Positions 7,577 to 64,000 are shown, counted from the stretch's first letter. The stretch is DNA of 64,000 nt from Methylococcales bacterium (GCA_018672285.1 JABHGC010000183.1:133-64132), one strand, 5' to 3'. Numbers and translations are program-made. The notes: generated by a model not told the origin, from the sequence alone.

Positions 7577-8230
7577 TTATGCGTCGGCACGGGTGACAGG
7601 TTTGAGTATGACTAAATGCCTTGCCCCATCAATATGTGGCACGGTCAATTGCTCAACGTTTGCTATCTCATAGCCTTTTGGTGGTGTTTGTTTTTCTTTT
7701 AACCAATCCCCTTTCATTGCGAGTAATTGTCCATTTTTTTGAAAGAGGCCTGTATCAATAATGAGCATATCAGAAAGGGACGCAAACGCGCGAGTGGTTA
7801 TACTTGAATACTGCCCCTCCTTGGGTAGTTGTTCTATTCTACTGTGTATTGCGGTGACATTGGTTAACCCCAATTCAATCACTGCTTGACGCACAAAGCG
7901 TATTTTTTTGCTATTGCCATCCAGTAACGTGAAGTGCTTTGCTGGATTGGCAATGGCTAGTGGTATTCCTGGTAAGCCTGCGCCAGTACCTACGTCCAAA
8001 ATGTGATCACCATTAATAAATGGCGCAATGGATAAACTATCCAGAAGGTGTTTGATTACCATCTCTTTTGGGTCCCGTATTGCAGTCAGGTTATAAGTTT
8101 TGTTCCATTTTTGCAATAATCCTATAAATTCAATATATTGCGAAATTTGATCTTGACTGAATGACATCGACATTTGGTCTGTGCTAGTTTCAAATAACGA
8201 GGTTAATGCTTCCATGCTAACCGTGCTCAC
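7577..8230 (-). CDS. rsmG: 16S rRNA m7G527 methyltransferase (GidB)
   Basis: WNKTYNLTAIR, HLLDSL, LDVGTGAGLPGIPLA; upstream of parAB. Confidence 0.96.
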   Translation of the reverse strand: MSTVSMEALTSLFETSTDQMSMSFSQDQISQYIEFIGLLQKWNKTYNLTAIRDPKEMVIKHLLDSLSIAPFINGDHILDVGTGAGLPGIPLAIANPAKHFTLLDGNSKKIRFVRQAVIELGLTNVTAIHSRIEQLPKEGQYSSITTRAFASLSDMLIIDTGLFQKNGQLLAMKGDWLKEKQTPPKGYEIANVEQLTVPHIDGARHLVILKPVTRADA

Positions 8231-8232
8231 TG

Positions 8233-8613
8233 TTGAGAATTGAGGTGTTTTTTATGCTAAAACCATTCACACTATTGTTAGCTTTTTTGCTGACAGGTTG
8301 CGGTACTGACCCAAATACCTTAACAACGGGCAAACAGTTATTTGAGCATTACTGTGTTACTTGTCATGGCATCGCGGGCACCGGGGTTTTTTTAAAAGGT
8401 ATTCCGGCCAATATTGTGACGGATAAAAATTTGAGCAGCATTATTGTTCAGATTCAACAAGGGAGCAAACCTAATCGTACCGGAACAAAAATGCCAGCTT
8501 TTCCTAATATTTCAGACAGTGCGGCAAAAAAAATTGCATTACATTTGTTATTGCTAAAAAAAGAATATCTACAGGGTAAACATCGAGATAAGATTCTGCT
8601 TACACCAAAATAA
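8233..8613 (+). CDS. Mono-heme c-type cytochrome, probable lipoprotein (likely start 8254)
   Basis: Lipobox LLTGC, single CVTCH heme motif, distal KMP Met ligand candidate. Confidence 0.85.
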   Translation: MRIEVFFMLKPFTLLLAFLLTGCGTDPNTLTTGKQLFEHYCVTCHGIAGTGVFLKGIPANIVTDKNLSSIIVQIQQGSKPNRTGTKMPAFPNISDSAAKKIALHLLLLKKEYLQGKHRDKILLTPK

Positions 8614-8668
8614 TGTGACCAAGCTGTAAGAGGGTGAAAAAGGCAACTGCAAATAGGTAACCATTCAT
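8600..8668 (-). CDS. Possible 22-aa hydrophobic small protein
   Basis: AAGGA 8 nt before ATG; MNGYLFAVAFFTLLQLGHIILV; overlaps the cytochrome c 3' end by 14 nt. Confidence 0.25.
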   Translation of the reverse strand: MNGYLFAVAFFTLLQLGHIILV

Positions 8669-8781
8669 GAGGCGCGTCCTTGTTATTATTGTTATCAATC
8701 ACTCCTTGTGACTGTTCCCCCTATTGTAATTATTTCAAACTGAAATACCAGTACTAATTATTAGGACATTTCTGAGGTCAA

Positions 8782-9993
8782 TTAGGCCATTCCATGTTGG
8801 GCAATAAGTGCTTCAATTCCTGACAACCGGCGCTGGTGAATGTGCTGCTTAATGTCTAGACCAGACAATTTTAGATAGATGTCTGAATAATCATGTTGCT
8901 CTAGGTGAATTAACCAATTCAGCAGCGCACTTTGTTGTGGGTAGCGTTCATCTTCATATCCGTACCGCCCTCTTGAATCCGCTTTACAGACAAGTAAAAA
9001 AGCTTCAAACCGATCTCGACGACGAAATGCGTCACTTTGTTCAAGTAATGATAAAACGTCCTCTGCTGTTAGTTGAAATAGCCTGTGCACATGAGTGTGG
9101 AAACTGGCCGCAAGTTGTGCAAGCTCAATACATTGATTCGGTGGTTTAAGTCGGTTGCATGCAGCTTTAACCAACTGCACTCCTCGCGCTTCATGGCCAG
9201 GATGTTTCGGCCAGTGCTCTGGTGGCGTTGAGCCTTTGCCTAAATCATGTAAAAGTGCGGCAAAACGAACGTCAATATTGGCTGATAACTTTTCTGCTTG
9301 GCTCAGTACCAATAAGCTATGAATGCCAGTATCAATTTCAGGGTGGCTCGAAGCCGATTGTGGCACCCCGAATAATTTTGAGACTTCTGGCATGATTTTG
9401 GATAAAGCGCCGCAGTCTTGTAACACCTGAATAAAAATGGCGGTGTTTTGCCCTGCTAATGCTTTAGCAAATTCTGCCCATACTCGTTCTGCAACCCACT
9501 TATCAAGATCCCCCTCATCCACCATTGTGGTCATTAACTGCAGGGTACTGCTGGCAATGCTAAACCCTATTCCGTGGTAACGAGCAGCAAACCGAGCTGT
9601 ACGCAATAGGCGAATAGGGTCTTGCCTGAAGCTTGCTGCACTCACATGGCGGATAATTTTATCGTGCAAATCTTGTTGACCAGCAAATGGGTCTATCACA
9701 TGACCGTTTTCATCTTGAGCCATGGCATTGATTGTCAGGTCTCTGCGCGCAAGATCCTCTTCTATTGTGGTATCAGGGTGACTGATGCCTGAGACGTTCA
9801 CCGCTAGGGCATGTTCATCACTGGTTTTTGGGTGTAAAAAAACCGCAAATGATTGACCAACCTGCTGATACCCCTGGGTCAATAAATCGTCTGCTGTGGC
9901 GCCTGTCAGTACCCAGTCTTGATCCACGTTTTTACGCTGCAAAAGTGTGTCACGAACTGCGCCGCCAACTAAGTATTTTTTTATTGAGGCCAT
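8782..9993 (-). CDS. cca: Class II tRNA nucleotidyltransferase with HD domain (CCA family; flexible loop shortened)
   Basis: YLVGGAVRD, DQD, RRDLTINA, DPIRLLRTARF, HPEIDTGIH, LHDLGKG. Family is clear; CCA versus CC activity is uncertain. Confidence 0.9.
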   Translation of the reverse strand: MASIKKYLVGGAVRDTLLQRKNVDQDWVLTGATADDLLTQGYQQVGQSFAVFLHPKTSDEHALAVNVSGISHPDTTIEEDLARRDLTINAMAQDENGHVIDPFAGQQDLHDKIIRHVSAASFRQDPIRLLRTARFAARYHGIGFSIASSTLQLMTTMVDEGDLDKWVAERVWAEFAKALAGQNTAIFIQVLQDCGALSKIMPEVSKLFGVPQSASSHPEIDTGIHSLLVLSQAEKLSANIDVRFAALLHDLGKGSTPPEHWPKHPGHEARGVQLVKAACNRLKPPNQCIELAQLAASFHTHVHRLFQLTAEDVLSLLEQSDAFRRRDRFEAFLLVCKADSRGRYGYEDERYPQQSALLNWLIHLEQHDYSDIYLKLSGLDIKQHIHQRRLSGIEALIAQHGMA

Positions 9994-54452: not shown

Positions 54453-55988
54453 ATGAACTCACCCGCCGAACATCGTCTCCGCTCAAACGCACTCATTATG
54501 CACTCAGTATTGGCTGAGCAATATGAAGTCATTGACGTATTAGGGGAAGGTAGCTTTGGTATCACTTATTTAGCTTATGATGTTCGCATAGAAAATCTTG
54601 TTGCCATTAAAGAATACCTCCCACTTGAGCTTGCAACAAGACATCAAGACCGCATACAGCCTTTATCGCAAGAACATTCAGAATTATTTCATAAATTTAA
54701 ATCCCGCTTTTGCGATGAAGCCAAAGCATTGGCTAAGTTTAAACACCATGCTTTAGTCAGGGTACTCAATTACTTTGAAGCCAACGATACCGGCTACCTC
54801 GTCATGGAATATGAACAAGGGCAAAGTTTAAAGCAGTATCTACAACAGCATGGAAAACTCGGTGAAGCCAAAACTTGTCAGCTCATCTTACCATTGCTCG
54901 ATGGCCTCGAAACAATGCACCAAGCAGAGCTCATTCATCGAGACATCAAACCCAGTAATATCTACATCCGCGACAATGGCAACCCCGTATTGTTGGATTT
55001 CGGTTCAGCCAGACCATTTCTAAAAGAACACTCAGGCAGCCTAACAGCACTGTATACGCCCGGTTATGCCCCATTAGAACAATACAATACGGACTCAACC
55101 GGGCAAGGGCCTTGGTCTGACATCTATGCCATGGCTGCTGTCATGTATAAAATGATTACTGGTGACCGCCCAGCAGAAGCGCACCAACGCGCACAAGCCA
55201 TACTGTCTGGCAAAAATGACATCATGCCTAGCGCACAAAGCTTTTCTTGTGATAAGTATTCCCGCCACTTTCTGCAAGCGATAGATCACGGACTGGGTGT
55301 CGTGCCTGCACTACGACCTCAATTGGTTCAACCCTGGAAACAAGCCATTATTCAATCTGAACTTGCTGAAGTGACCAACCTGCGGAAAAATATTGCGTTA
55401 CTCCAACAAGAAAACAAACAACTGCAAAGAGAGAACACCACAACCTTTACCCAAGCCACTAAACCTCGCCCTATCGCTAGTGACTATGATTTAGCTGTTT
55501 CACATGCGCTAACAGCCATTGCCCCGCCAACATATTCCAACAAAAAAGCCTACTCAGCCATTATTGGAATTACACTCACAGCCATTGGGATATGGGCAGC
55601 AGCCCTTGAATACCACCACCAGACAATAGTCTTTAAACCGTCACTCATTGAAGCCAAACAACAGTGGCAAGACCCAAGTACCGGCATGACCTTTATGTGG
55701 GTACAAAAAGGCTGCTACCAATCGACCCACAACCCAGATAAAAGCACTGCACCTACTTGCATTGACGGCTACTGGATTAGCAAACAACCTATTAATAAAA
55801 GCCAATGGCAACGACTGATGGATAAAACATTGGTTTCTGAATTAAATATTAGCCAAGCCGAAGCCTTCATTGAAAAACTCAATCGCCTATCTGGTAAGCG
55901 CTTTCGCCTACCTTCAAAACAAGAACAAGAATGGGCCGTTACCCAACAGCTACTCACCACACCAAACCAATTTAACATTGTACTATGA
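54453..55988 (+). CDS. Hanks-type Ser/Thr protein kinase with TM helix and truncated FGE/SUMF1-like C-terminus
   Basis: LGEGSFG, VAIKEY, HRDIKPSN, DFG, GYAPLEQ; C-terminal FRLPSKQEQEWA. Confidence 0.9.
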   Translation: MNSPAEHRLRSNALIMHSVLAEQYEVIDVLGEGSFGITYLAYDVRIENLVAIKEYLPLELATRHQDRIQPLSQEHSELFHKFKSRFCDEAKALAKFKHHALVRVLNYFEANDTGYLVMEYEQGQSLKQYLQQHGKLGEAKTCQLILPLLDGLETMHQAELIHRDIKPSNIYIRDNGNPVLLDFGSARPFLKEHSGSLTALYTPGYAPLEQYNTDSTGQGPWSDIYAMAAVMYKMITGDRPAEAHQRAQAILSGKNDIMPSAQSFSCDKYSRHFLQAIDHGLGVVPALRPQLVQPWKQAIIQSELAEVTNLRKNIALLQQENKQLQRENTTTFTQATKPRPIASDYDLAVSHALTAIAPPTYSNKKAYSAIIGITLTAIGIWAAALEYHHQTIVFKPSLIEAKQQWQDPSTGMTFMWVQKGCYQSTHNPDKSTAPTCIDGYWISKQPINKSQWQRLMDKTLVSELNISQAEAFIEKLNRLSGKRFRLPSKQEQEWAVTQQLLTTPNQFNIVL

Positions 55989-56088
55989 GGCTTACGACCG
56001 TAACCGAGCTTGGTACTTTGTCCATCGATGTTCTATAGTATAAAGCGCTTGAGCACGATTCGCGCCCAATCAAACTAAGGGAGATATA

Positions 56089-57111
56089 ATGCTAAAACGT
56101 TATTTAAGGGGGCTGGCAGGATTTTGGATCGGACTGATTGTTCTATCCATATTAGTGTCATCCTGCTCCTCTTCAAAAGAAGATCGAATGAAGGAAGCTG
56201 TAGAGCAAGAGCTCAAAGCAGCTGATATTTCAGTAGGGTACTTAGGCAAAGCAATTGCCGACGGCAATTTACATAATGCCAATAAGCTCAAAACGTATGC
56301 CAAACAACTGAAAATCCAAAAACCAGATTTGGCACCTCTTATTGATGAAATTGCCAAAGATGCAACTAAAGAGGGGCCTTTATATAAAAGCCTGGTCTCA
56401 CGTTTAGACTACGTGAAATCAAAACCGGAGGCCTTCCCTGCCGTTGCCGAACGATTGGACGAAGTTAAAACCGTACGCCAAGCCGCATCAACCAGCTTAT
56501 TTAATGATGCTTTATCCGATTCGGTCAACGTATTAGCCGATATGTCGGATGGCAAATTGCCTCGGGTAAAAGCCATGAGCAAACAGGCTGAACAAAAAAG
56601 CAATCGTTCTAAAGATTATGGAGCGGGCAGTCAATATATTGGCAACCCCAGTTATGGTCATTGGCAGCAAAACTCCAGCGGTACTAGCTTTTGGGCATGG
56701 TATGGCATGTACTCCATGTTTAATAATTTATCTCGCCCCGTCTATTACGGAAATTGGTCATCAAACCGGGGTTACAGTTACTACAACGATTATGGCCGGA
56801 GCCGCTACACCAGCCCTACGCAAAGAACCTCTCAGCAAGCAACGTATAACCGAACTAAAAAATCGTTTGCGAGTAAAGGCAAAAGCTTCTCTAGCCCGTA
56901 CTCAAAAACAAAAACGGGTTCCAGCTCACTTAGCCTAGCGAGTAAAACGCCAAGCAAATCTTCGTCGTATAGCTCTGGTCGATCTTCCTACAGTTCAGGA
57001 AAATCTTCTTCAAGTTATGCCAGCTCTAGCAGCCGTTCAAACTCCAGCTATAGCTCATCCTCTCGAAGTGGCTATTCTCGTTCATCGCGTAGTTACAGCG
57101 GCGGCAAATAA
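56089..57111 (+). CDS. Lipoprotein with aromatic-rich core and Ser/Arg/Tyr-rich tail
   Basis: Lipobox VSSC; SFWAWYGMY segment; low-complexity tail ending SYSGGK; GGGAG RBS. Confidence 0.8.
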   Translation: MLKRYLRGLAGFWIGLIVLSILVSSCSSSKEDRMKEAVEQELKAADISVGYLGKAIADGNLHNANKLKTYAKQLKIQKPDLAPLIDEIAKDATKEGPLYKSLVSRLDYVKSKPEAFPAVAERLDEVKTVRQAASTSLFNDALSDSVNVLADMSDGKLPRVKAMSKQAEQKSNRSKDYGAGSQYIGNPSYGHWQQNSSGTSFWAWYGMYSMFNNLSRPVYYGNWSSNRGYSYYNDYGRSRYTSPTQRTSQQATYNRTKKSFASKGKSFSSPYSKTKTGSSSLSLASKTPSKSSSYSSGRSSYSSGKSSSSYASSSSRSNSSYSSSSRSGYSRSSRSYSGGK

Positions 57112-57151
57112 CTTTATTTTTACGATAAAAAGACATTAAGGAACGTTAACC

Positions 57152-58060
57152 ATGTTCGAATTTGATTTTAACAGTTTAGATATTTGGAAATTCCAAGCGT
57201 CGGCCATTAGTTTCCTCATCATACTTCTACTTTTCATTAGCTTGCGCCTATTAAAAGGGTTTATTGCGAATGTCAGTACCAGTGACGAAATTGCAGAAAA
57301 AGACAACGCCGCATTTGGTGTATCATTTGCAGGTGGCATCACGGCTCTTGCCATTATGTTAACCGGTGCCAGCTCTGGTGAATATGCAGATTCAATGCTG
57401 CAAGATGCCATTAGCATGTTGGTATTTGGCGCCATCGGTTTGGTCATGATTACCATTGGCCGCTTCATCCAAGATAAAGTCGTGATGCGTAATGTGGCTA
57501 TATTAGAAGAAATTAAAAAAGGTAACCTAGCCGCAGCCTTTGTTGATATTGGCAATGTGATTGCTGTTGGTATCGTCATTCGCGCCTCAATGATCTGGGT
57601 TGAAACTGAAGGTTGGATTGCAATTCCCATTATCTTTGCCGCTTTTATCGTATCCCAAGTCGTTTTAGTGGGTGGTGCGATCTACCGCATTAACTTATTT
57701 AAGTCCCGCAACAACGGATCAGACTGTAACTGCATGCAACAAGCGCTTGAAGATGGCAACCACGCACTGGGCATTCGTTATGCCGGTTACATGATTGGCC
57801 TCTCTCTAGCCATCACAGCAGCTTCTGGCATGGTGGCTTATTCTGCTGAAAACATCATTGGCTGTGTCATTAGCTGGGCGATTGCCGCTTTAGTCTTTAG
57901 CATTGCTTTTATGGTTTTTGTCGCTGTTGCAAGAATGGCCATTTTACCCGGTATCAAGGTATCGGATGAAGTCGACAAGCAAAAAAATGCCAGTGTTGGC
58001 GTCATAGAAGCGGCTATCGCAGTTGCTATTGGCCTCACCTTTGTTTCTTTGTTTGGCTAA
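57152..58060 (+). CDS. DUF350 (YjfL-like) membrane protein, tandem domain
   Basis: Repeated motifs EIAEKDNAAFG, EIKKGNLAAA, EDGNHALG, DKQKNASVG each preceding TM helices. Confidence 0.8.
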   Translation: MFEFDFNSLDIWKFQASAISFLIILLLFISLRLLKGFIANVSTSDEIAEKDNAAFGVSFAGGITALAIMLTGASSGEYADSMLQDAISMLVFGAIGLVMITIGRFIQDKVVMRNVAILEEIKKGNLAAAFVDIGNVIAVGIVIRASMIWVETEGWIAIPIIFAAFIVSQVVLVGGAIYRINLFKSRNNGSDCNCMQQALEDGNHALGIRYAGYMIGLSLAITAASGMVAYSAENIIGCVISWAIAALVFSIAFMVFVAVARMAILPGIKVSDEVDKQKNASVGVIEAAIAVAIGLTFVSLFG

Positions 58061-58072
58061 AGCAATACAAGC

Positions 58073-58100
58073 TAACCCCCTGAGGCAACAAAGGGGGTTA
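58073..58100 (+). other. Intergenic stem-loop without U-tract
   Basis: TAACCCCC-N12-GGGGGTTA. Confidence 0.6.
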
Positions 58101-58149
58101 TCTCTATTCCAACAAGCACGCTGTTATACCTCTGAAGAACCAAAAATTC

Positions 58150-59871
58150 ATGCCCACACCTAGCACTCCAAGCTCGGCACAGAAAAAACAACTCCGCCTG
58201 CACGACATTACCCTCATTGGTATTATGGGCGTGTTAGCTATGTGTGGCCTCATATATGAGTACCTACTCTCACATTATGCAGCCAGAGTATTAGGTGCCG
58301 TTGAATCCACCATATTTGCCATGATCGGCATCATGATTGTTGCTATGGGCATTGGCGCCTATAGTGCTCGCTGGTTTAAAGCCCCCTTCACCGCATTTGC
58401 ATGGCTTGAAGCCATTATCGCGTTTATTGGCATGACCATGATTCTGGTGATCGCAGGGCTCATTGCACTCAGTGAAGGTTTGCCCTATATCCTCAGCCAA
58501 GTATTTAACTTACCCCCTGACTTCATTCTCGATGGCGACATCCTGCAAACCTTACAAACACTCGCTGCCACCACACCCTACATTGCAGGCTTTCTACTCG
58601 GTGCCTTTATCGGCATGGAAATTCCGCTCATCGCCAGAGCCAGACAATCGTTATATGAGACCCATTTAGAAAATAACATTGGAACCATTTACGGCGCAGA
58701 TTATATTGGCGCCGGTATAGGCGCGGCAATCTGGGTACTGTTTTTACTCTCCATGGAAATCACCACTGCGGCACTCATCACAGCTTCAGTGAACATCATC
58801 GCTGGCTGGATCTTCATTCTGCGCTACCATGAGCGCATCAGATACCGTACAGCACTCATTATCGTACATATTGTATTGATGATTATTGCTTTGATTTTAG
58901 CAAAATCCAGTAGTGGCTGGATGACTAAGCTGACTAACATTCTCTATCAAGACCAAGTTGTTTACAGTACCCAAACCCATTACCAACACATTTCAGTCAC
59001 AGAACGGCAGCGCGCCAATGGCCAACCCAGTGTGGTTGACCTTTATTTAAATGGACGTTTACAATTTTCAAGCTTGGATGAGCACATTTACCACAACATG
59101 CTGGTCTACCCTGCCATGGCAGCCTCTCGCAGACATGACAACATTCTCATCATAGGTGGTGGTGATGGCATGGCACTACGCGATGTACTACGCTGGAAAC
59201 CACAGCATGTCACTCTAATAGACCTAGACCCAGAAATGATCAAACTGTTCTCAGGCCAGGGTGATGACCCATTGTCCAAACGCTTTGCCCAGCTCAACGA
59301 ACATGCTTACCAAGATCCTAGAGTCAAAACCATCACTGGTGATGCTTTTATAGAAATTGAAACACTATTGGCCGAAAATCAACGGTTTGATAGTATCATT
59401 GTTGACTTGCCAGACCCCAACCACCCAGATTTGAACAAATTATACAGCGTGCACTTCTATGAACGTCTAAAGTTACTGCTACAAGGTGATGGCGCCATGA
59501 GCATTCAATCCACCTCCCCTTACCATGCAAAACATGCCTTTCAGTCCGTAGGGAAAACGACATCCGCTGCAGGGTTCGCTCATGTAGAGCAATACCGACA
59601 AAATATCCCCTCTTTCGGTGAATGGGGATGGACATTGGCCACCAAAAAAGGGAAAAGCGGCAAAGTAAGACTTTCTGAATTAACTGAATTACCCGTAGAA
59701 AACCCTTGGGTTAGTAAAGCATTATTATTAGCAGCTTTTGAATTCCCTGCTAATTTTTACAGTAATATCAAAAAGATAAAGATAAACCAATTAGGTTCAG
59801 GCCAATTATATCAATACCATCATAGGGCTTGGGCAACTGATCAAGGTGTATTTAACACCAAAGAAGATTGA
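58150..59871 (+). CDS. speE: Membrane-fused polyamine aminopropyltransferase (spermidine synthase-like)
   Basis: Multi-TM N-terminal half; QTHYQ, LIIGGGDG, IDLDPEM, GDAF, IVDLPDP. Confidence 0.85.
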   Translation: MPTPSTPSSAQKKQLRLHDITLIGIMGVLAMCGLIYEYLLSHYAARVLGAVESTIFAMIGIMIVAMGIGAYSARWFKAPFTAFAWLEAIIAFIGMTMILVIAGLIALSEGLPYILSQVFNLPPDFILDGDILQTLQTLAATTPYIAGFLLGAFIGMEIPLIARARQSLYETHLENNIGTIYGADYIGAGIGAAIWVLFLLSMEITTAALITASVNIIAGWIFILRYHERIRYRTALIIVHIVLMIIALILAKSSSGWMTKLTNILYQDQVVYSTQTHYQHISVTERQRANGQPSVVDLYLNGRLQFSSLDEHIYHNMLVYPAMAASRRHDNILIIGGGDGMALRDVLRWKPQHVTLIDLDPEMIKLFSGQGDDPLSKRFAQLNEHAYQDPRVKTITGDAFIEIETLLAENQRFDSIIVDLPDPNHPDLNKLYSVHFYERLKLLLQGDGAMSIQSTSPYHAKHAFQSVGKTTSAAGFAHVEQYRQNIPSFGEWGWTLATKKGKSGKVRLSELTELPVENPWVSKALLLAAFEFPANFYSNIKKIKINQLGSGQLYQYHHRAWATDQGVFNTKED

Positions 59872-59896
59872 CATATTATGTCAGTCGCACTATTCT
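59868..59896 (+). promoter_or_regulatory. sigma70 promoter upstream of yjfI-pspA
   Basis: TTGACA(59868)-N17-TATTCT(59891). Confidence 0.75.
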
Positions 59897-59918
59897 AAAC
59901 CCATGACACGTTATGTCA
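59869..59918. repeat. Two palindromic operator-like sites TGACA-N5-TGTCA
   Basis: TGACAtattaTGTCA (59869-59883) and TGACAcgttaTGTCA (59904-59918), 13 of 15 identical. Confidence 0.8.
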
Positions 59919-59945
59919 TACATCTAACATAAAAGGTGACACTTA

Positions 59946-60344
59946 ATGGACTTACAAGCACTTTCAATCAAACTTGCTAATCACGACCAAGAAGGCATGA
60001 CCTTTGAATCCATCTTCATTACAGATGATGTATTACAAGTGGTTGTTGATCAAAACGAAGAACTACCGATTTACGTGACGGCAACAGAAGAGCAAATGCT
60101 CTGCATTACCTACCTTTTTGATGAAAAAGAGCTAAAAGACAACGTTACAGCAGAACTAAATGCATCATTACTGAAACTTAACGTACCGGTGCCTTTAAGC
60201 GCATTTGCCATCATTGAAGGCAAATATGCAATCTACGGATCATTGTCAGTAAGTTCAGCTTTCGATGACATTGCACACGAATTAGTCACCCTTGGCGACA
60301 ACGCAATCGAAGCATTAGAGACACTAGAAGACTATTTGGCGTAA
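59946..60344 (+). CDS. YjfI family (DUF2170) protein
   Basis: ELPIYVTATEEQMLCITYL, VPLSAF, YAIYGSLS; immediately upstream of pspA. Confidence 0.78.
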   Translation: MDLQALSIKLANHDQEGMTFESIFITDDVLQVVVDQNEELPIYVTATEEQMLCITYLFDEKELKDNVTAELNASLLKLNVPVPLSAFAIIEGKYAIYGSLSVSSAFDDIAHELVTLGDNAIEALETLEDYLA

Positions 60345-60372
60345 GCACTTAAACTACATAGAGGTTACAAAC

Positions 60373-61068
60373 ATGGGTATTTTATCAAAAATTTTTACCG
60401 CAATCCGTGGTGGTGCAAGAGAAGTTGGCGAAACAATCGTTGACGCAAACGCCCTACGTATTTTCGAGCAAGAAATTGCGGATGCAAAAAATGCATTAAA
60501 CAAAGCCAAAGGCAGCCTAACCGAAGTGATGGCTAAAGAAATGCAAACTAAACGCAAAATTACAGCGGTTGAAAACAACATCGCTGAACACGAAGGTTTT
60601 GCAGGTGAAGCTTTAAACAAAGGCGACGAAGCATTAGCACTTGAAATTGCTGAAAAAATTGGCGAATTTGAAGTAGAACTTGCAGAGCAGCAAGCGATTT
60701 TAAGCACCTTTGTTGGTAGCGTTAAAGCGCTTAAGCAACAAGTGAAGCAAGCTGAGAAATCAATCAAAGAAAACCAGAGACAATTAGTGATGGTTAAAAC
60801 GACTGATAGCGTACAGAAAGCAACAATGGCTGTTAACGACAACTTAGTGAATAACAACTCAACCATGAGTTCTGCTAAAGAGTCTTTAGATCGCATTAAA
60901 AAGCGCCAACAAGATCGCCAAGATCAAATGGCAGCTTCGCAAGAGCTGTATGATCAAGATACCGGTGCTGATTTAAAAGCGAAAATGGCAGACGCTGGCA
61001 TTGGCGGCTCTCCAAAAGCGAAAAGCGACGACATCTTAGCTCGAATTAGAGCCAAGCAGTCTAGCTAA
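60373..61068 (+). CDS. PspA/IM30/Vipp1 family protein (YjfJ-like)
   Basis: MGILSKIFTAIRG amphipathic helix, long coiled coil, DDILARIRAK end. Confidence 0.92.
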   Translation: MGILSKIFTAIRGGAREVGETIVDANALRIFEQEIADAKNALNKAKGSLTEVMAKEMQTKRKITAVENNIAEHEGFAGEALNKGDEALALEIAEKIGEFEVELAEQQAILSTFVGSVKALKQQVKQAEKSIKENQRQLVMVKTTDSVQKATMAVNDNLVNNNSTMSSAKESLDRIKKRQQDRQDQMAASQELYDQDTGADLKAKMADAGIGGSPKAKSDDILARIRAKQSS

Positions 61069-61085
61069 ACACCCCCTTCCCTTTT

Positions 61086-61112
61086 AGGCGCACAGTGATG
61101 TGCGCCTTTTTT
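61086..61112 (+). terminator. Intrinsic terminator after the PspA-family gene
   Basis: AGGCGCAC-agtgat-GTGCGCCT followed by a T run. Confidence 0.85.
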
Positions 61113-61146
61113 GGTTTGTCAGAAACCGTTTTAAGGACACATAATT

Positions 61147-61791
61147 ATGGGCTGGTTTTCGAAAGAGAAAGAAACGACCCGCAGCATCGAACACCCTCGC
61201 AGCTTACAAAAGGGCGACATGATTCAAATGCTAGACTCATTCTCCCTACCACCTGAACTCAAAGGAGAAGCCTTAACCGTAGTTGCCGTCAATAGTTACC
61301 AATATGACGATGGTGACAGTTATGAGCTCACCTTAAAAGGCAGTATGAGCGACCCCGTATTTCTCACCGTTGAAGAAGAAGATGGTACAACCTGGCTTAA
61401 CTTTAGCCTGAAAATTCAACGCTCAGATGTCGACAAACTGTTTACGCTTGATCAATTTGCCATGATTTTTGATAGCGACGACTTAGTCACGATAGAACGT
61501 ACAGGTGACATTGATGGCTTAGAAAGATGGGTTTCTACGCGTTATACCCAAACAGAACAACCATATGTCGGCTATTATTATGAGAACCAAGATTTTCGTG
61601 GGCAAAAAATCTCACGTTATGACGAAGACGATAATGGTGAACAATTTGAAACGTTAGCACTAGCAGACCCAGATGAAGATTATTACATCAATATTGAAAT
61701 TTGGGATGGTGGCGAAACCGATGTGAGCTTAACCACATGTAGGCCATTAAGTGACATCACTGAAATGTACCCAGGAAAAGATGATTCGTGA
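61147..61791 (+). CDS. YjfK/DUF2491/DUF4178-like acidic beta-rich protein
   Basis: MGWFSK start, acidic and beta-strand rich, follows pspA as yjfK follows yjfJ. Confidence 0.6.
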   Translation: MGWFSKEKETTRSIEHPRSLQKGDMIQMLDSFSLPPELKGEALTVVAVNSYQYDDGDSYELTLKGSMSDPVFLTVEEEDGTTWLNFSLKIQRSDVDKLFTLDQFAMIFDSDDLVTIERTGDIDGLERWVSTRYTQTEQPYVGYYYENQDFRGQKISRYDEDDNGEQFETLALADPDEDYYINIEIWDGGETDVSLTTCRPLSDITEMYPGKDDS

Positions 61792-62114
61792 GTATAGAAC
61801 CACCTAAAAAGTGGGAAAAACAGCAAAAGGCCATACGCGCAACCCAGTTGGCGTTTGACCTCAGCACAACAGTACAAAAAATCATCAAAAAAAGTGCCAT
61901 TGATGAAGATGTAACCCCACCCGATATGATCCGAAAGATACTAGGGCTTGCGGTAAAGTCAAAGAAGACCCGGCAAAGATTAACCTTTAATTTAAATGAC
62001 GATGAACTGGTAGCGCTAGCCGATCAATTTCAGCTAGAAAAGGATGATAAAGCCGCCATTAAGCAACGAGTTGCAGAGGAGTTGATTGCATATGCACAAA
62101 AGCACGAGGCATAA
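61788..62114 (+). CDS. Putative tandem ribbon-helix-helix DNA-binding protein
   Basis: Two strand-helix-helix patterns: TQLAFDL-STTVQKIIKKSA-PPDMIRKIL and RLTFNL-NDDELVALA-KAAIKQRV. Confidence 0.55.
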   Translation: MSIEPPKKWEKQQKAIRATQLAFDLSTTVQKIIKKSAIDEDVTPPDMIRKILGLAVKSKKTRQRLTFNLNDDELVALADQFQLEKDDKAAIKQRVAEELIAYAQKHEA

Positions 62115-63215
62115 ATGCATATATTACATAAGCTACTACACCATAAAAGACGCAGTAAGTTTGCAAACCCCCGCCTAGCAAAGGGTCGCAAACGACTATT
62201 TCAGCTATCCGCCTTATTATTTGGCATCATATTGCTACACACACTCGGCATGGTGATCTTCGAAAAAGACATTGGCTGGTGGGATGGCTTCTGGCTCAGC
62301 TGGACAACCGCGACCACAGTTGGTTACGGTGATTTATCCGCCTCAACCCCATTAGGCAGGCTCACAACCCTCATTTTAATGTACTGTGTGGCCATATCCT
62401 TACTAGCACAACTGGCTAGCGAATACATAGAATACCGAATAGATTCACGCGAACGTAAAATCAAAGGCCTCTGGGAGTGGAAAAAAATGCAAGACCATAT
62501 TCTCATCATCAACACCCCACAAAAAGGGGCGGAACGTTATTTAAACCGACTGATAAAACAAATACGCTTAACACCCAGCTTAACTGGTTGTCCCATACAA
62601 ATATTAACAAGGCGATATGAACATGGACTGCCACAAACATTAAATGACCAAAATGTGGTGCATTATCATGGCCACTCAGAAAACTCAGATGCACTACGAG
62701 CCGTGCATGTTGATACCGCAAAATATGTCTATTTAGTTGCTCGTGATGAGGACGACAGCATGTCCGACAGCTTAACCTTTGATGTATTGACCCGAATCAA
62801 AGAAATTGGCTGTACAGCCACCATAGTGGCCGAAGCGGTTGAAGATGCAAACCGAGCACGGTTTGAAACCTATGGTGCAGACTCTGTGATTAGACCGATC
62901 AGAGCCTACCCTGCCCTTGTTGCCAGAGCGATGGATTCACCAGGTACAGAGAAAGTGCTAGAAAATTTATTTTCCCACAAAGGTGATCACCCTCACCGCT
63001 TCGACTTAAATTTTGATTGCCCCGACTGGAAATCACTGGCTTGTAAAATCATGATGGCCAACATAGGCACACCGATGGGTTACATCAATACTGAAGGCGA
63101 GGTCATCACTAACCCAAAACCAAACAAACCAGCAAAAGGTGCCTCTTTACTCATCTTAATTCATCAGGACAATTTACCTGAAAATGATGTATTAGAGTCC
63201 TGTATCAATTCATAA
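62115..63215 (+). CDS. Two-TM potassium channel with RCK/TrkA-N domain
   Basis: TTVGYGD selectivity filter; cytoplasmic DHILII...DALRAVHVDTAK RCK domain. Confidence 0.92.
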   Translation: MHILHKLLHHKRRSKFANPRLAKGRKRLFQLSALLFGIILLHTLGMVIFEKDIGWWDGFWLSWTTATTVGYGDLSASTPLGRLTTLILMYCVAISLLAQLASEYIEYRIDSRERKIKGLWEWKKMQDHILIINTPQKGAERYLNRLIKQIRLTPSLTGCPIQILTRRYEHGLPQTLNDQNVVHYHGHSENSDALRAVHVDTAKYVYLVARDEDDSMSDSLTFDVLTRIKEIGCTATIVAEAVEDANRARFETYGADSVIRPIRAYPALVARAMDSPGTEKVLENLFSHKGDHPHRFDLNFDCPDWKSLACKIMMANIGTPMGYINTEGEVITNPKPNKPAKGASLLILIHQDNLPENDVLESCINS

Positions 63216-63231
63216 CGACAAGGAAATCATT

Positions 63232-63345
63232 ATGTTAACCAATATTTTTAGATCTCTATCGATGATGTACAACGACATGCCCAAAGGCGTTCAAATCATT
63301 TTTTGGGTATTTATTGCAGCCATCTTATTGTGGATCATTTTCTAA
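63232..63345 (+). CDS. 37-aa single-TM membrane peptide (missed by ORF track)
   Basis: AAGGA RBS; MLTNIFRSLSMMYNDMPKGVQIIFWVFIAAILLWIIF; stop overlaps the next RBS. Confidence 0.65.
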   Translation: MLTNIFRSLSMMYNDMPKGVQIIFWVFIAAILLWIIF

Positions 63346-63355
63346 GGAGAACACT

Positions 63356-63805
63356 ATGCCACACAGCGGCGCAGGTGGATCAGACGGCGGAACAGGTCGT
63401 TTTTTAATGGGCTTACTGATGATGTGTATCGGAGGCTACCTATTTTTAAACCACATCCAGGTCACCAGTGGAATGCGTATGGGCTTTGGCCACAGCATGT
63501 ATTCTGGCAGCATGGGCGGTTTTAACTACAGCGTCACGGGCGGTATGATCTTTGTCCCCTTCATATTTGGTGTTGGCATGATTTTCTGGAACAGCAAAAA
63601 CACCTTAGGTTGGTTACTCACACTCGGCTCCTTAGCGGCATTTTCCATTGGCATCATCGTCAGTATTCGCATGCACATCAAACCCATGAGTGCTTTTGAC
63701 CTGATTACGGTATTGGTATTACTGGCCGGTGGCATAGGTATGTTTGGCAGCTCACTCAGAAATTTCAACAAACAAGAACAAAGCCAAGAAAATAACCGGC
63801 AATAA
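63356..63805 (+). CDS. Gly-rich four-TM membrane protein
   Basis: AAGGAG RBS before ATG 63356; GAGGSDGG start; four hydrophobic segments. Confidence 0.78.
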   Translation: MPHSGAGGSDGGTGRFLMGLLMMCIGGYLFLNHIQVTSGMRMGFGHSMYSGSMGGFNYSVTGGMIFVPFIFGVGMIFWNSKNTLGWLLTLGSLAAFSIGIIVSIRMHIKPMSAFDLITVLVLLAGGIGMFGSSLRNFNKQEQSQENNRQ

Positions 63806-63883
63806 AAAAACATTTCAGTCAGCGTTCAGAAAAAACGGTGTATGGTTAATCCATTGCAATTCAAACCAATAGGATTAACCATG

Positions 63884-63906
63884 AAAAAAGCCCTACTGAT
63901 TCGGGC
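63884..63906 (-). terminator. Possible minus-strand intrinsic terminator
   Basis: Minus strand GCCC-gaatcagta-GGGC-T6, probably ending a gene that enters from beyond the window. Confidence 0.45.
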
Positions 63907-64000
63907 GCATTCCCAAAAAGTAGGCAGATTTATAATACAACAGGAAGCGTCGCCCAAGTATTCAGCATACCCCAGCGACCTGCTTTATAGTAACAACGCA

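Follow-up and report, generated by a model that had tools for sequence, protein, structure and literature searches.

Proteins of the PspA/IM30 family are bacterial relatives of ESCRT-III whose partners outside the classical Psp and Lia systems are known from gene neighbourhoods only, and what serves as acceptor for the spermidine-synthase-like enzymes that are fused to membrane domains, a widespread class, has been a standing question since 2019. A gene cluster at positions 56089-63805 of a 64,000-nt stretch from a Methylococcales bacterium (GCA_018672285.1, JABHGC010000183.1:133-64132; the whole stretch is called the window here) brings a pspA gene together with such an enzyme and a K+ channel gene, raising the question of whether these genes form one system and what that system does. 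The initial annotation had described nine co-oriented genes and proposed an undescribed envelope-stress system linking PspA, polyamine synthesis and a K+ channel. The co-oriented set is present, but it totals ten open reading frames (ORFs), all on the plus strand and packed with short or overlapping junctions; the ORFs, the internal promoter, the two palindromes and the terminator-like hairpin were all found where they had been placed. The system itself, however, is not new to the literature: Ravi et al. 2024 (mSystems 9:e00847-23, PMC11237479) already give the operon gene by gene and define it as the 'second major group' of CesT/Tir-PspA operons, here called group 2.

According to that study, group 2 operons comprise a fusion of seven transmembrane (TM) segments with a spermine/spermidine synthase, an eight-TM YjfL/DUF350 protein, a novel lipoprotein, a DUF4178 protein and sometimes a ribbon-helix-helix (RHH) protein; their archetype is AAN56744-AAN56747 of Shewanella oneidensis MR-1 (PMC11237479). 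The first seven genes of the window's cluster follow the group 2 order. A lipoprotein gene (56089-57111, 340 amino acids (aa), lipobox VSSC) of the 'Ctha_1186' family of the published operon is followed by a gene for a duplicated DUF350 (YjfL-like) integral membrane protein with about eight TM segments (57152-58060, 302 aa; PF03994, E 3.9e-42, three stretches) and by 7TM-SpeE, in which a seven-TM domain is fused to an aminopropyltransferase domain of the spermidine-synthase fold (58150-59871, 573 aa; NF002956, PF01564). Next comes the pair that characterizes the group, DUF2170/YjfI (59946-60344, 132 aa; PF09938, E 3.5e-33) and, after a gap of 28 bases, a PspA/IM30 family protein of the YjfJ type (60373-61068, 231 aa; PF04012, 129 bits against a cut-off of 33.9, E 2.5e-37). 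A DUF4178 protein (61147-61791, 214 aa) and a tandem RHH-like protein (61788-62114, 108 aa), whose GTG start overlaps the DUF4178 stop, complete the set. The window operon is a typical member of a catalogued but functionally untested class of envelope operons.

The archetype bears this out and also shows where the two operons part. The S. oneidensis MR-1 operon has the same seven genes in the same order and then an Ion_trans-type K+ channel as its eighth gene; its lipoprotein (P0061) is 53% identical to that of the window, and its palindromes lie at the same places. The window's operon ends with genes for a 2TM-RCK channel and a Gly-rich membrane protein, between which a possible 37-aa ORF lies, whereas MR-1 has a Kv-like 6TM channel instead. 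The text of PMC11237479 on group 2 makes no mention of a channel, palindromes, a terminator or a Gly-Lys terminus. Our comparison, which covered about 110 related loci, yields three testable statements on these points: that a palindrome and the tandem RHH protein form a control switch, that a K+ channel belongs regularly to the system, and that the enzyme is tied to exported proteins ending in Gly-Lys. All three can be tested in S. oneidensis MR-1, which has the same operon and palindromes.

Taken as a whole, the explanation that we consider likely is that of a group 2 CesT/Tir-PspA envelope operon under RHH control, with a recurrent K+ channel and an enzyme that makes no free spermidine. The tandem RHH protein would bind the palindromes and thereby autorepress yjfI-pspA-DUF4178-RHH-channel, and a partial terminator would leave YjfI and PspA in excess over the downstream products. 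PspA, handled by the chaperone-like YjfI, would act at the inner membrane from the cytoplasmic side. The 7TM-SpeE enzyme would use decarboxylated S-adenosylmethionine (dcSAM) from the genome's lone class-1b AdoMetDC and, instead of making free spermidine, would work at the envelope in concert with DUF350 and the lipoprotein that ends in Gly-Lys; the K+ channel, gated through its RCK domain, may couple the envelope system to ion flux or membrane potential.

Conservation in relatives shows that the genes of the cluster belong to one unit. A DUF4178 profile search gave a census of 80 loci, one genome per species, in Alteromonadaceae metagenome-assembled genomes (MAGs), Pseudoalteromonas, Pleionea, Shewanella, Colwellia relatives and further gammaproteobacteria. 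The seven-gene core is collinear in 78 of these, an arrangement far beyond what chance would produce, the remaining two being interrupted by contig ends; the flanks vary among clades. Among 400 genomes sampled evenly across the class, DUF2170 occurred in 18, whose neighbourhoods we annotated: 13 carry the group 2 gene set, two have ATP-grasp-type loci that include a K+ channel, and a further two are of the bac type. The order of the genes differs between loci by cyclic permutation. The lipoprotein gene, with the DUF350 gene always directly after it, precedes the enzyme gene, as in the window, or follows RHH/channel (L089, L092, L095, L099). The left and right halves of the cluster, on whose co-occurrence the initial annotation had staked its proposal of a single system, are found together in all related loci that are complete. 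Two genomes have the set in separate places, with a channel-lipoprotein-DUF350x2 triad (L108, G269:C1; L109, G072:C13) far from the enzyme-YjfI-PspA-DUF4178 part; the triad stands alone there, which shows the system to be modular.

Control of the unit appears to centre on the spacer between the enzyme gene and yjfI. An internal sigma-70-type promoter, TTGACA-17-TATTCT (59868-59896, +), would serve yjfI-pspA and the downstream genes; its elements are conserved, TTGACA and, 17 nt on, TAnTCT recurring in this spacer in related loci. The first of two candidate operators, TGACATATTATGTCA (59869-59883), overlaps the -35 element, and the second, TGACACGTTATGTCA (59904-59918), which has one mismatch to the family core, lies 35 bp past the first, immediately behind the -10 element. 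The whole 64 kb contains no TGACA-N5-TGTCA other than these two, and 0.10 copies would be expected. The palindrome of the SpeE-yjfI spacer is GACATAATATGTC. Across the census, all 80 loci have exactly two copies of a 13-bp palindrome, GACAT-N3-ATGTC, 34-40 bp apart in the enzyme-yjfI spacer, the first overlapping a perfect TTGACA, and two copies likewise stand in the S. oneidensis MR-1 spacer. A third palindrome occurs upstream of the lipoprotein gene in 14 of the 80 relatives as well as in MR-1. No palindrome was found upstream of the first gene in the window, where a weak sigma-70-like site (TTGGTA-18-TATAGT, 56010-56039, +), with 9/12 matches and no better than background, is a possible outer promoter.

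The palindrome tracks the RHH gene. In the class-wide sample it is present wherever the RHH gene is, sometimes with one half-site degenerate, and it was not found in group 2 loci without RHH (L096-L099), in ATP-grasp loci or in bac-type loci. When loci were scored for RHH and for at least two core motifs upstream of yjfI, 87 had both, one had RHH only, one the motif only and seven neither, which corresponds to 87 of 88 loci with RHH and 1 of 8 scored loci without it, at a background of 1%. Both off-diagonal loci are explained: in the window the second copy has one mismatch, and in L094 the RHH gene was detected by blastp only. Because the palindrome occurs only where the RHH gene is present, autorepression is suggested, and we infer, with good support from these comparisons, that the tandem RHH protein represses its own operon through the palindromes. 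Two further observations concern this motif. In L093 (G329:C67, ~7900-9630, -) a minimal YjfI-PspA-RHH unit has two adjacent palindromes at its promoter and is without enzyme, lipoprotein, DUF350 and DUF4178, the full group 2 set lying elsewhere in the same genome. A palindrome regulon elsewhere in the window's genome was considered and dropped, as the genome has only three strict copies where some 4.8 would be expected, the other two being apparently due to chance.

The candidate repressor contains two repeats of a strand-like segment, a helix and a helix. Its model (pLDDT 78) has helices at residues 27-39/44-51 and 71-81/88-107, after extended segments, and the best local Foldseek matches were RHH proteins, comprising antitoxins and NikA (8u12, 2ba3, FitA and AtaR), all at E > 0.7 and not significant. 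Neither a Pfam match nor a PDB sequence or profile match was obtained for this protein. A second element of control may lie after pspA, where a terminator-like hairpin with a 9-bp stem containing six G-C pairs is followed by a T-run (61086-61116, +). Most related loci likewise have a hairpin and T-run at this place; the stem sequences differ from genus to genus. We regard it as a probable partial terminator, which probably lowers expression of the genes after pspA.

Turning to the proteins under this putative control, DUF2170/YjfI was assigned by Ravi et al. 2024 (PMC11237479) to a chaperone fold of the CesT/Tir-like kind, and residues 2-230 of its partner PspA cover positions 1-219 of the 220 in the PF04012 model. 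The DUF4178 protein is beta-rich and predicted to be cytoplasmic. PF13785 matches 26 of 32 aligned orthologues and close homologues, through which the window copy, itself below threshold, is assigned. Its AlphaFold model has a pLDDT of 90.7, and searches of the PDB gave no fold match (TM-score <=0.17) and no sequence match. The initial annotation had called this gene 'YjfK-like'. Comparison of a 17-sequence profile with E. coli YjfK by hhalign gave a probability of 0.3% and an E of 0.18, and neither the window copy nor its orthologues matched DUF2491; the label therefore reflects position, not homology. Separately, the genome carries a second, different PspA/IM30 gene (C275:1391-2059, L150; 222 aa), followed by a polytopic membrane protein of at least 490 aa, and no pspB or pspC is visible around it in this 3.5-kb locus.

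To judge from the distribution of such genes, the system regularly includes a K+ channel. The window's channel (62115-63215, +, 366 aa) starts directly after the RHH stop and has a TTVGYGD filter, two TM segments and a C-terminal RCK/TrkA_N domain, as expected of an RCK K+ channel of the MthK/Kch-like type. Ion_trans_2 matched at E 3.2e-11 and TrkA_N marginally, at 24.3 bits against a cut-off of 23.8, the Pleionea orthologue reaching 38.9 bits. A 2TM-RCK channel follows RHH in six of the 80 census loci, the window counted; the same position is occupied by a Kv-like 6TM channel in Shewanella and by a minimal 2TM channel in one Cognaticolwellia, and three non-orthologous channel types at one position argue for a function. 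In the even sample, orthologues of the window channel (34-44% identity) occur in 15 of 401 genomes, and ten of these 15 are among the 18 DUF2170 genomes (400 sampled). Moreover, ten of the 13 group 2 genomes carry the window-type channel, nine of them beside operon genes, where the orthologues of these nine lineages are 39-44% identical. In L092, L095 and L099 the channel is embedded between RHH/DUF4178 and the lipoprotein gene. The published account mentions a K+ channel for the ATP-grasp group only (PMC11237479). The link between channel and PspA operon drawn in the initial annotation thus holds, on the strength of the three channel types after RHH, the embedding in three lineages and the co-occurrence with DUF2170.

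The enzyme at the heart of the second question has intact motifs and a catalytic domain predicted to lie outside the cytoplasm. It scores 594.6 bits against NF002956 (cut-off 472) and matches PF01564 over residues 311-502 (E 8e-33); in an alignment with the solved aminopropyltransferase 7xif, its GGGDG and DLPDP correspond to GGGEG and DLTDP. The model score, the acidic residue of GxG(D/E)G for dcSAM and the catalytic Asp are those of the SpeE family. All seven hydrophobic segments lie before residue 250, and in 90 homologues the N-terminus and loops 2, 4 and 6 together carry 8.9 Lys/Arg per sequence against 2.5 for loops 1, 3 and 5. From the number of segments and this charge distribution, the catalytic domain is predicted, by rule of thumb, to lie outside the cytoplasm and to face the periplasm. 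A source of dcSAM is encoded elsewhere in the genome: an orphan class-1b AdoMetDC (C1:6826-7227, -, 133 aa) with an intact Glu-Ser processing site, AESHISVHTWPE, is unlinked to the operon and has no aminopropyltransferase gene nearby. Neither a soluble SpeE nor, above cut-off, nspC was found in the genome assembly. According to a 2019 study by Li, Kurihara, Kim, Liang and Michael, fusions of this kind reportedly make no spermidine; neither the fusion nor the catalytic domain alone is said to complement a speE deletion, and the bacteria concerned reportedly contain no spermidine. The clusters in that work are said to combine AdoMetDC, a membrane-SpdSyn-like fusion and DUF350, and the window's genome matches this reported pattern, having all three and no canonical spermidine synthase, with the difference that its AdoMetDC is unlinked (contig C1) and its fusion lies inside a PspA operon.

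A conserved C-terminus marks the lipoprotein that accompanies the enzyme. The window's lipoprotein consists of a signal peptide with lipobox, a helical domain, an aromatic/Gly segment and a long Ser/Arg/Tyr-rich tail that ends in SRSYSGGK. All 87 lipoprotein homologues from related loci end in Gly-Lys; their last eleven residues are strongly conserved (SRTSRGxSRGK), and the rest of the tail is of low complexity. Of the further homologues retrieved with just the N-terminal domain, 20 of 20 have the same ending. In a global set (50% identity clusters) with 126 tailed representatives, 111 end in Gly-Lys, another five in a different Lys, nine in Arg-Arg and one in Gly-Gly. By comparison, Gly-Lys ends only 0.6% of long ORFs in the window's genome. 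Furthermore, the ending recurs beside paralogous enzymes. A second 7TM-SpeE gene of the same genome (507 aa, 31% identity to the window's; C156:28816-31988 unit) is preceded by a 205-aa lipoprotein that ends in SGSYSSGK and has no detectable similarity to the window lipoprotein (E 3.2); this second type of lipoprotein/7TM-SpeE pair recurs in four other genomes. A 67-aa signal-anchored protein with a Gly-Lys end precedes a further 7TM-SpeE paralogue. The enzyme therefore appears, from these associations, to be tied to exported proteins ending in Gly-Lys. Some details of these families are recorded here for completeness: the representatives ending in Arg-Arg(-Arg) are P0243, P0255, P0290, P0331, P0332, P0338, P0359, P0364 and P0381; P0378 ends in GFGG, like DUF1190 proteins; the C156 unit also holds a GNAT-like gene, with the same three-gene unit in L119, L120 and L121; and L125, whose contig is cut, has the lipoprotein-enzyme pair of the second type.

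Several points weigh against the explanation preferred here. What suggests the RHH fold is a sequence pattern together with weak local structural matches. Shewanella, Pleionea and L073/L074 have no hairpin after pspA. Neither the nearest relatives (Alteromonadaceae MAGs L002-L008) nor any of the Pseudoalteromonas loci have the channel, which is therefore dispensable in many lineages. Because Pseudoalteromonas dominates the 80-locus census, its counts represent non-independent events. The genome assembly is 97% complete in 304 contigs, so genes scored as absent may be unassembled.

Given that the enzyme seems to keep company with one kind of protein end, we considered whether that end is its acceptor. 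A protein-tail acceptor for 7TM-SpeE is plausible because of the Gly-Lys and Gly-Gly termini, the predicted topology, the YjfC/YgiC ligases and the precedent of fungal NHMT. YjfC and YgiC have been reported as peptide-spermidine ligases (Pederick et al. 2023, as cited in PMC11762307). DUF1190 lipoproteins encoded beside ATP-grasp genes end in Gly-Gly in all eight lineages examined; E. coli YjfM and YgiB, the lipoproteins of six other genomes and nine enterobacterial DUF1190 homologues have this end. Ends of this kind would make them suitable substrates for a ligase acting by amidation of a C-terminal Gly. In L100:9388-10026, L101:2245-2916 and L102-L107, the Gly-Gly ends of DUF1190 follow a conserved SRGGFG motif. 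The fungal protein NHMT/AN4663 (Batth et al. 2023, PMC10349129) also has seven TM segments followed by a spermidine-synthase-fold domain, and it acts on the terminus of secreted proteins in a compartment topologically equivalent to the periplasm. In NHMT, however, the GxG(D/E)G motif has Ile and the methyl group comes from SAM, whereas the window enzyme has Asp (GGGDG) and is of the dcSAM type; with 7TM domains that have no detectable relatives outside fungi (PMC10349129), NHMT offers a mechanistic analogy, not family membership.

A fuller version of this idea, which we offer tentatively as a possibility rather than an expectation, is that the operon encodes a protein-modification system of the outer face in which 7TM-SpeE aminopropylates the C-terminal Lys of the lipoprotein, the sister ATP-grasp operons reaching a similar end. 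The 7TM domain would hand cytoplasmic dcSAM to the enzyme's own periplasmic catalytic domain, which would aminopropylate the epsilon-amine of the C-terminal Lys; the product, a four-carbon chain, NH, a three-carbon chain and NH2, would have the spermidine skeleton. In the sister systems, YjfC/YgiC would amidate the C-terminal Gly of DUF1190 lipoproteins with spermidine. Both PspA-linked systems would then display a tethered polyamine in the envelope, where it might act on the K+ channel or on anionic lipids. If true, this would be a new kind of envelope protein modification and would bring two classes of operon together, with E. coli yjfIJKLMC and tolC-ygiBC among their members. Against it count the approximately 7% of lipoprotein family representatives that end in Arg-Arg, the circumstance that dcSAM is not known to be used in the periplasm, and the location of the ATP-grasp enzymes, which are cytoplasmic whereas their proposed lipoprotein substrate is exported.

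The readings that compete with ours differ mainly in what they make of the enzyme. In one, which follows the initial annotation's view of polyamine synthesis, 7TM-SpeE is a true polyamine synthase whose product, free spermidine or a related polyamine, is perhaps also exported; this polyamine and K+ flux would reset membrane charge while PspA repairs the bilayer. The score above the cut-off of an NCBIfam equivalog named 'polyamine aminopropyltransferase', the intact dcSAM-type GGGDG and catalytic DLPDP and the presence of an AdoMetDC gene are all as this view would have them. We nevertheless think it unlikely, as the 2019 study reportedly saw neither spermidine nor speE complementation, the predicted outward catalytic domain would be away from the diamine pool, and the fixed pairing with Gly-Lys-ended exported proteins would be left unexplained. 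The published account discusses the monitoring of polyamine concentration as one option, yet its passage on the fusions cites the 2019 study for 'aminopropylation of other substrates' (PMC11237479). The label 'polyamine synthesis' is doubtful. A shade less likely again is an acceptor in the envelope that is not a protein, such as a phospholipid head-group amine or a glycan, with the lipoprotein and DUF350 only as structural or regulatory partners. The literature names no acceptor (PMC11237479), a membrane-embedded enzyme with an outward catalytic domain would be well placed for one of this kind, and the Arg-Arg ends argue against an obligatory terminal Lys; this reading, however, does not account for the strong conservation seen in the last eleven lipoprotein residues and leaves unexplained why the same ending stands on a non-homologous lipoprotein and on the 67-aa protein beside paralogous enzymes.

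Two other readings concern the composition and purpose of the cluster. That the K+ channel, the 37-aa ORF and the Gly-rich protein are accidental neighbours would agree with the missing channel in the closest relatives and all Pseudoalteromonas loci and with the lack of any homologue of the 37-aa ORF in the loci examined. We hold it to be improbable for the group as a whole, since the channel start abuts the RHH stop, three unrelated channel types share the position, the channel lies inside the operon in three lineages and co-occurs strongly with DUF2170, and six loci, spread over two genera, have the Gly-rich protein; for the 37-aa ORF by itself, an accidental position is likely. An anti-phage defence role is very improbable indeed. 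It was raised by a co-oriented upstream Ser/Thr kinase that matches the PD-T4-6 and mad6 kinase models, but none of the operon proteins matched PADLOC except for the SpeE domain, which had a weak, methyltransferase-fold hit to mad2, the kinase adjoins the operon in no relative and has more than 20 paralogues in the genome, and the operon is vertically stable across genera while its flanks vary. The kinase itself (54453-55988, +, 511 aa; PADLOC E down to 4e-49) has a TM segment and a C-terminal extracytoplasmic domain; with many paralogues and no conservation beside the operon, it was rejected as an operon part.

The preferred explanation, an RHH-controlled group 2 envelope operon, also sets the cluster among better-known PspA systems. 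The parallel with E. coli yjfIJKLMC noted in the initial annotation is real: both have the YjfI-PspA pair, DUF350 and a lipoprotein with a tail, and a 2TM-RCK K+ channel is often present as well. The E. coli operon belongs to the 'third group', the ATP-grasp counterpart, and the YjfI-PspA pair comes first in both operon types. The enzymes differ, yjfIJKLMC having the ATP-grasp peptide-spermidine ligase YjfC where the window has 7TM-SpeE, and so do the lipoproteins, that of the yjfIJKLMC type being a DUF1190 protein whose basic Ser/Gly/Arg tail ends in Gly-Gly rather than Gly-Lys. The protein after PspA in operons of that type is DUF2491, unrelated to DUF4178, and these operons are without the RHH gene and the palindromes. 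In ATP-grasp-type loci of other gammaproteobacteria, a 2TM-RCK K+ channel comes directly after PspA. Pfam and NCBIfam searches of the window's operon region gave no match to an ATP-grasp GspS-like ligase, DUF1190 or DUF2491, and DUF1190 had none in the whole genome. With classical E. coli PspFABCDE the window's operon shares the effector PspA/IM30, but its locus is without genes for PspB, PspC and PspF; moreover, the E. coli Psp response depends on sigma-54 with PspF, whereas the window's operon has a sigma-70-like promoter, an RHH-type candidate repressor and YjfI as partner. The Pseudomonas aeruginosa bac cluster (BacA/PA3732-BacB/PA3731; PMC10948618) has DUF2170 and then a PspA homologue, as in the window, and the window's YjfI matches the BacA NCBIfam model with a score under its cut-off. 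The bac operon, however, has no spermidine-synthase fusion, DUF4178 or K+ channel, and the bac-type loci L083 and L084 carry a flotillin-like gene.

The last two ORFs of the cluster are less widespread. The 37-aa single-TM ORF (63232-63345, +), of uncertain status, is preceded at 8 nt by an AAGGA ribosome-binding site, and at its stop codon it overlaps the AAGGAG of the next gene; it had no Pfam or NCBIfam match, no homologue was found in 98 related loci, and in Pleionea the Gly-rich gene abuts the channel gene, leaving no room for such an ORF. The Gly-rich membrane protein (63356-63805, +, about 149 aa) belongs to a family without a name and had no Pfam, NCBIfam or PADLOC match. Its gene most likely starts at ATG 63356, behind AAGGAG, and not at TTG 63314. 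Among the six loci in two genera that carry it, homologues stand after the channel in Pleionea (L049, L071) and directly after RHH in Pseudoalteromonas (L051, L052, L069). Beyond the last gene, no terminator is seen in 63806-64000, and another plus-strand ORF starts there, at 63842 or 63882; the contig continues for 154 bases past the window and then stops.

Other small genes occupy the margins of related operons. In Pseudoalteromonas (L025-L067), a conserved 61-aa peptide with two TM segments (32 loci) lies about 25-130 bp after RHH, where others have the K+ channel, and a different small membrane protein of 68-76 aa takes the position after RHH in L011, L018 and L020. A rhomboid-like membrane protein with conserved His and Ser motifs adjoins the operon at two different positions: after the channel gene in L072 and L074 (197-235 aa), and upstream of the operon in L034, L036, L037 and L060 (about 180 aa).

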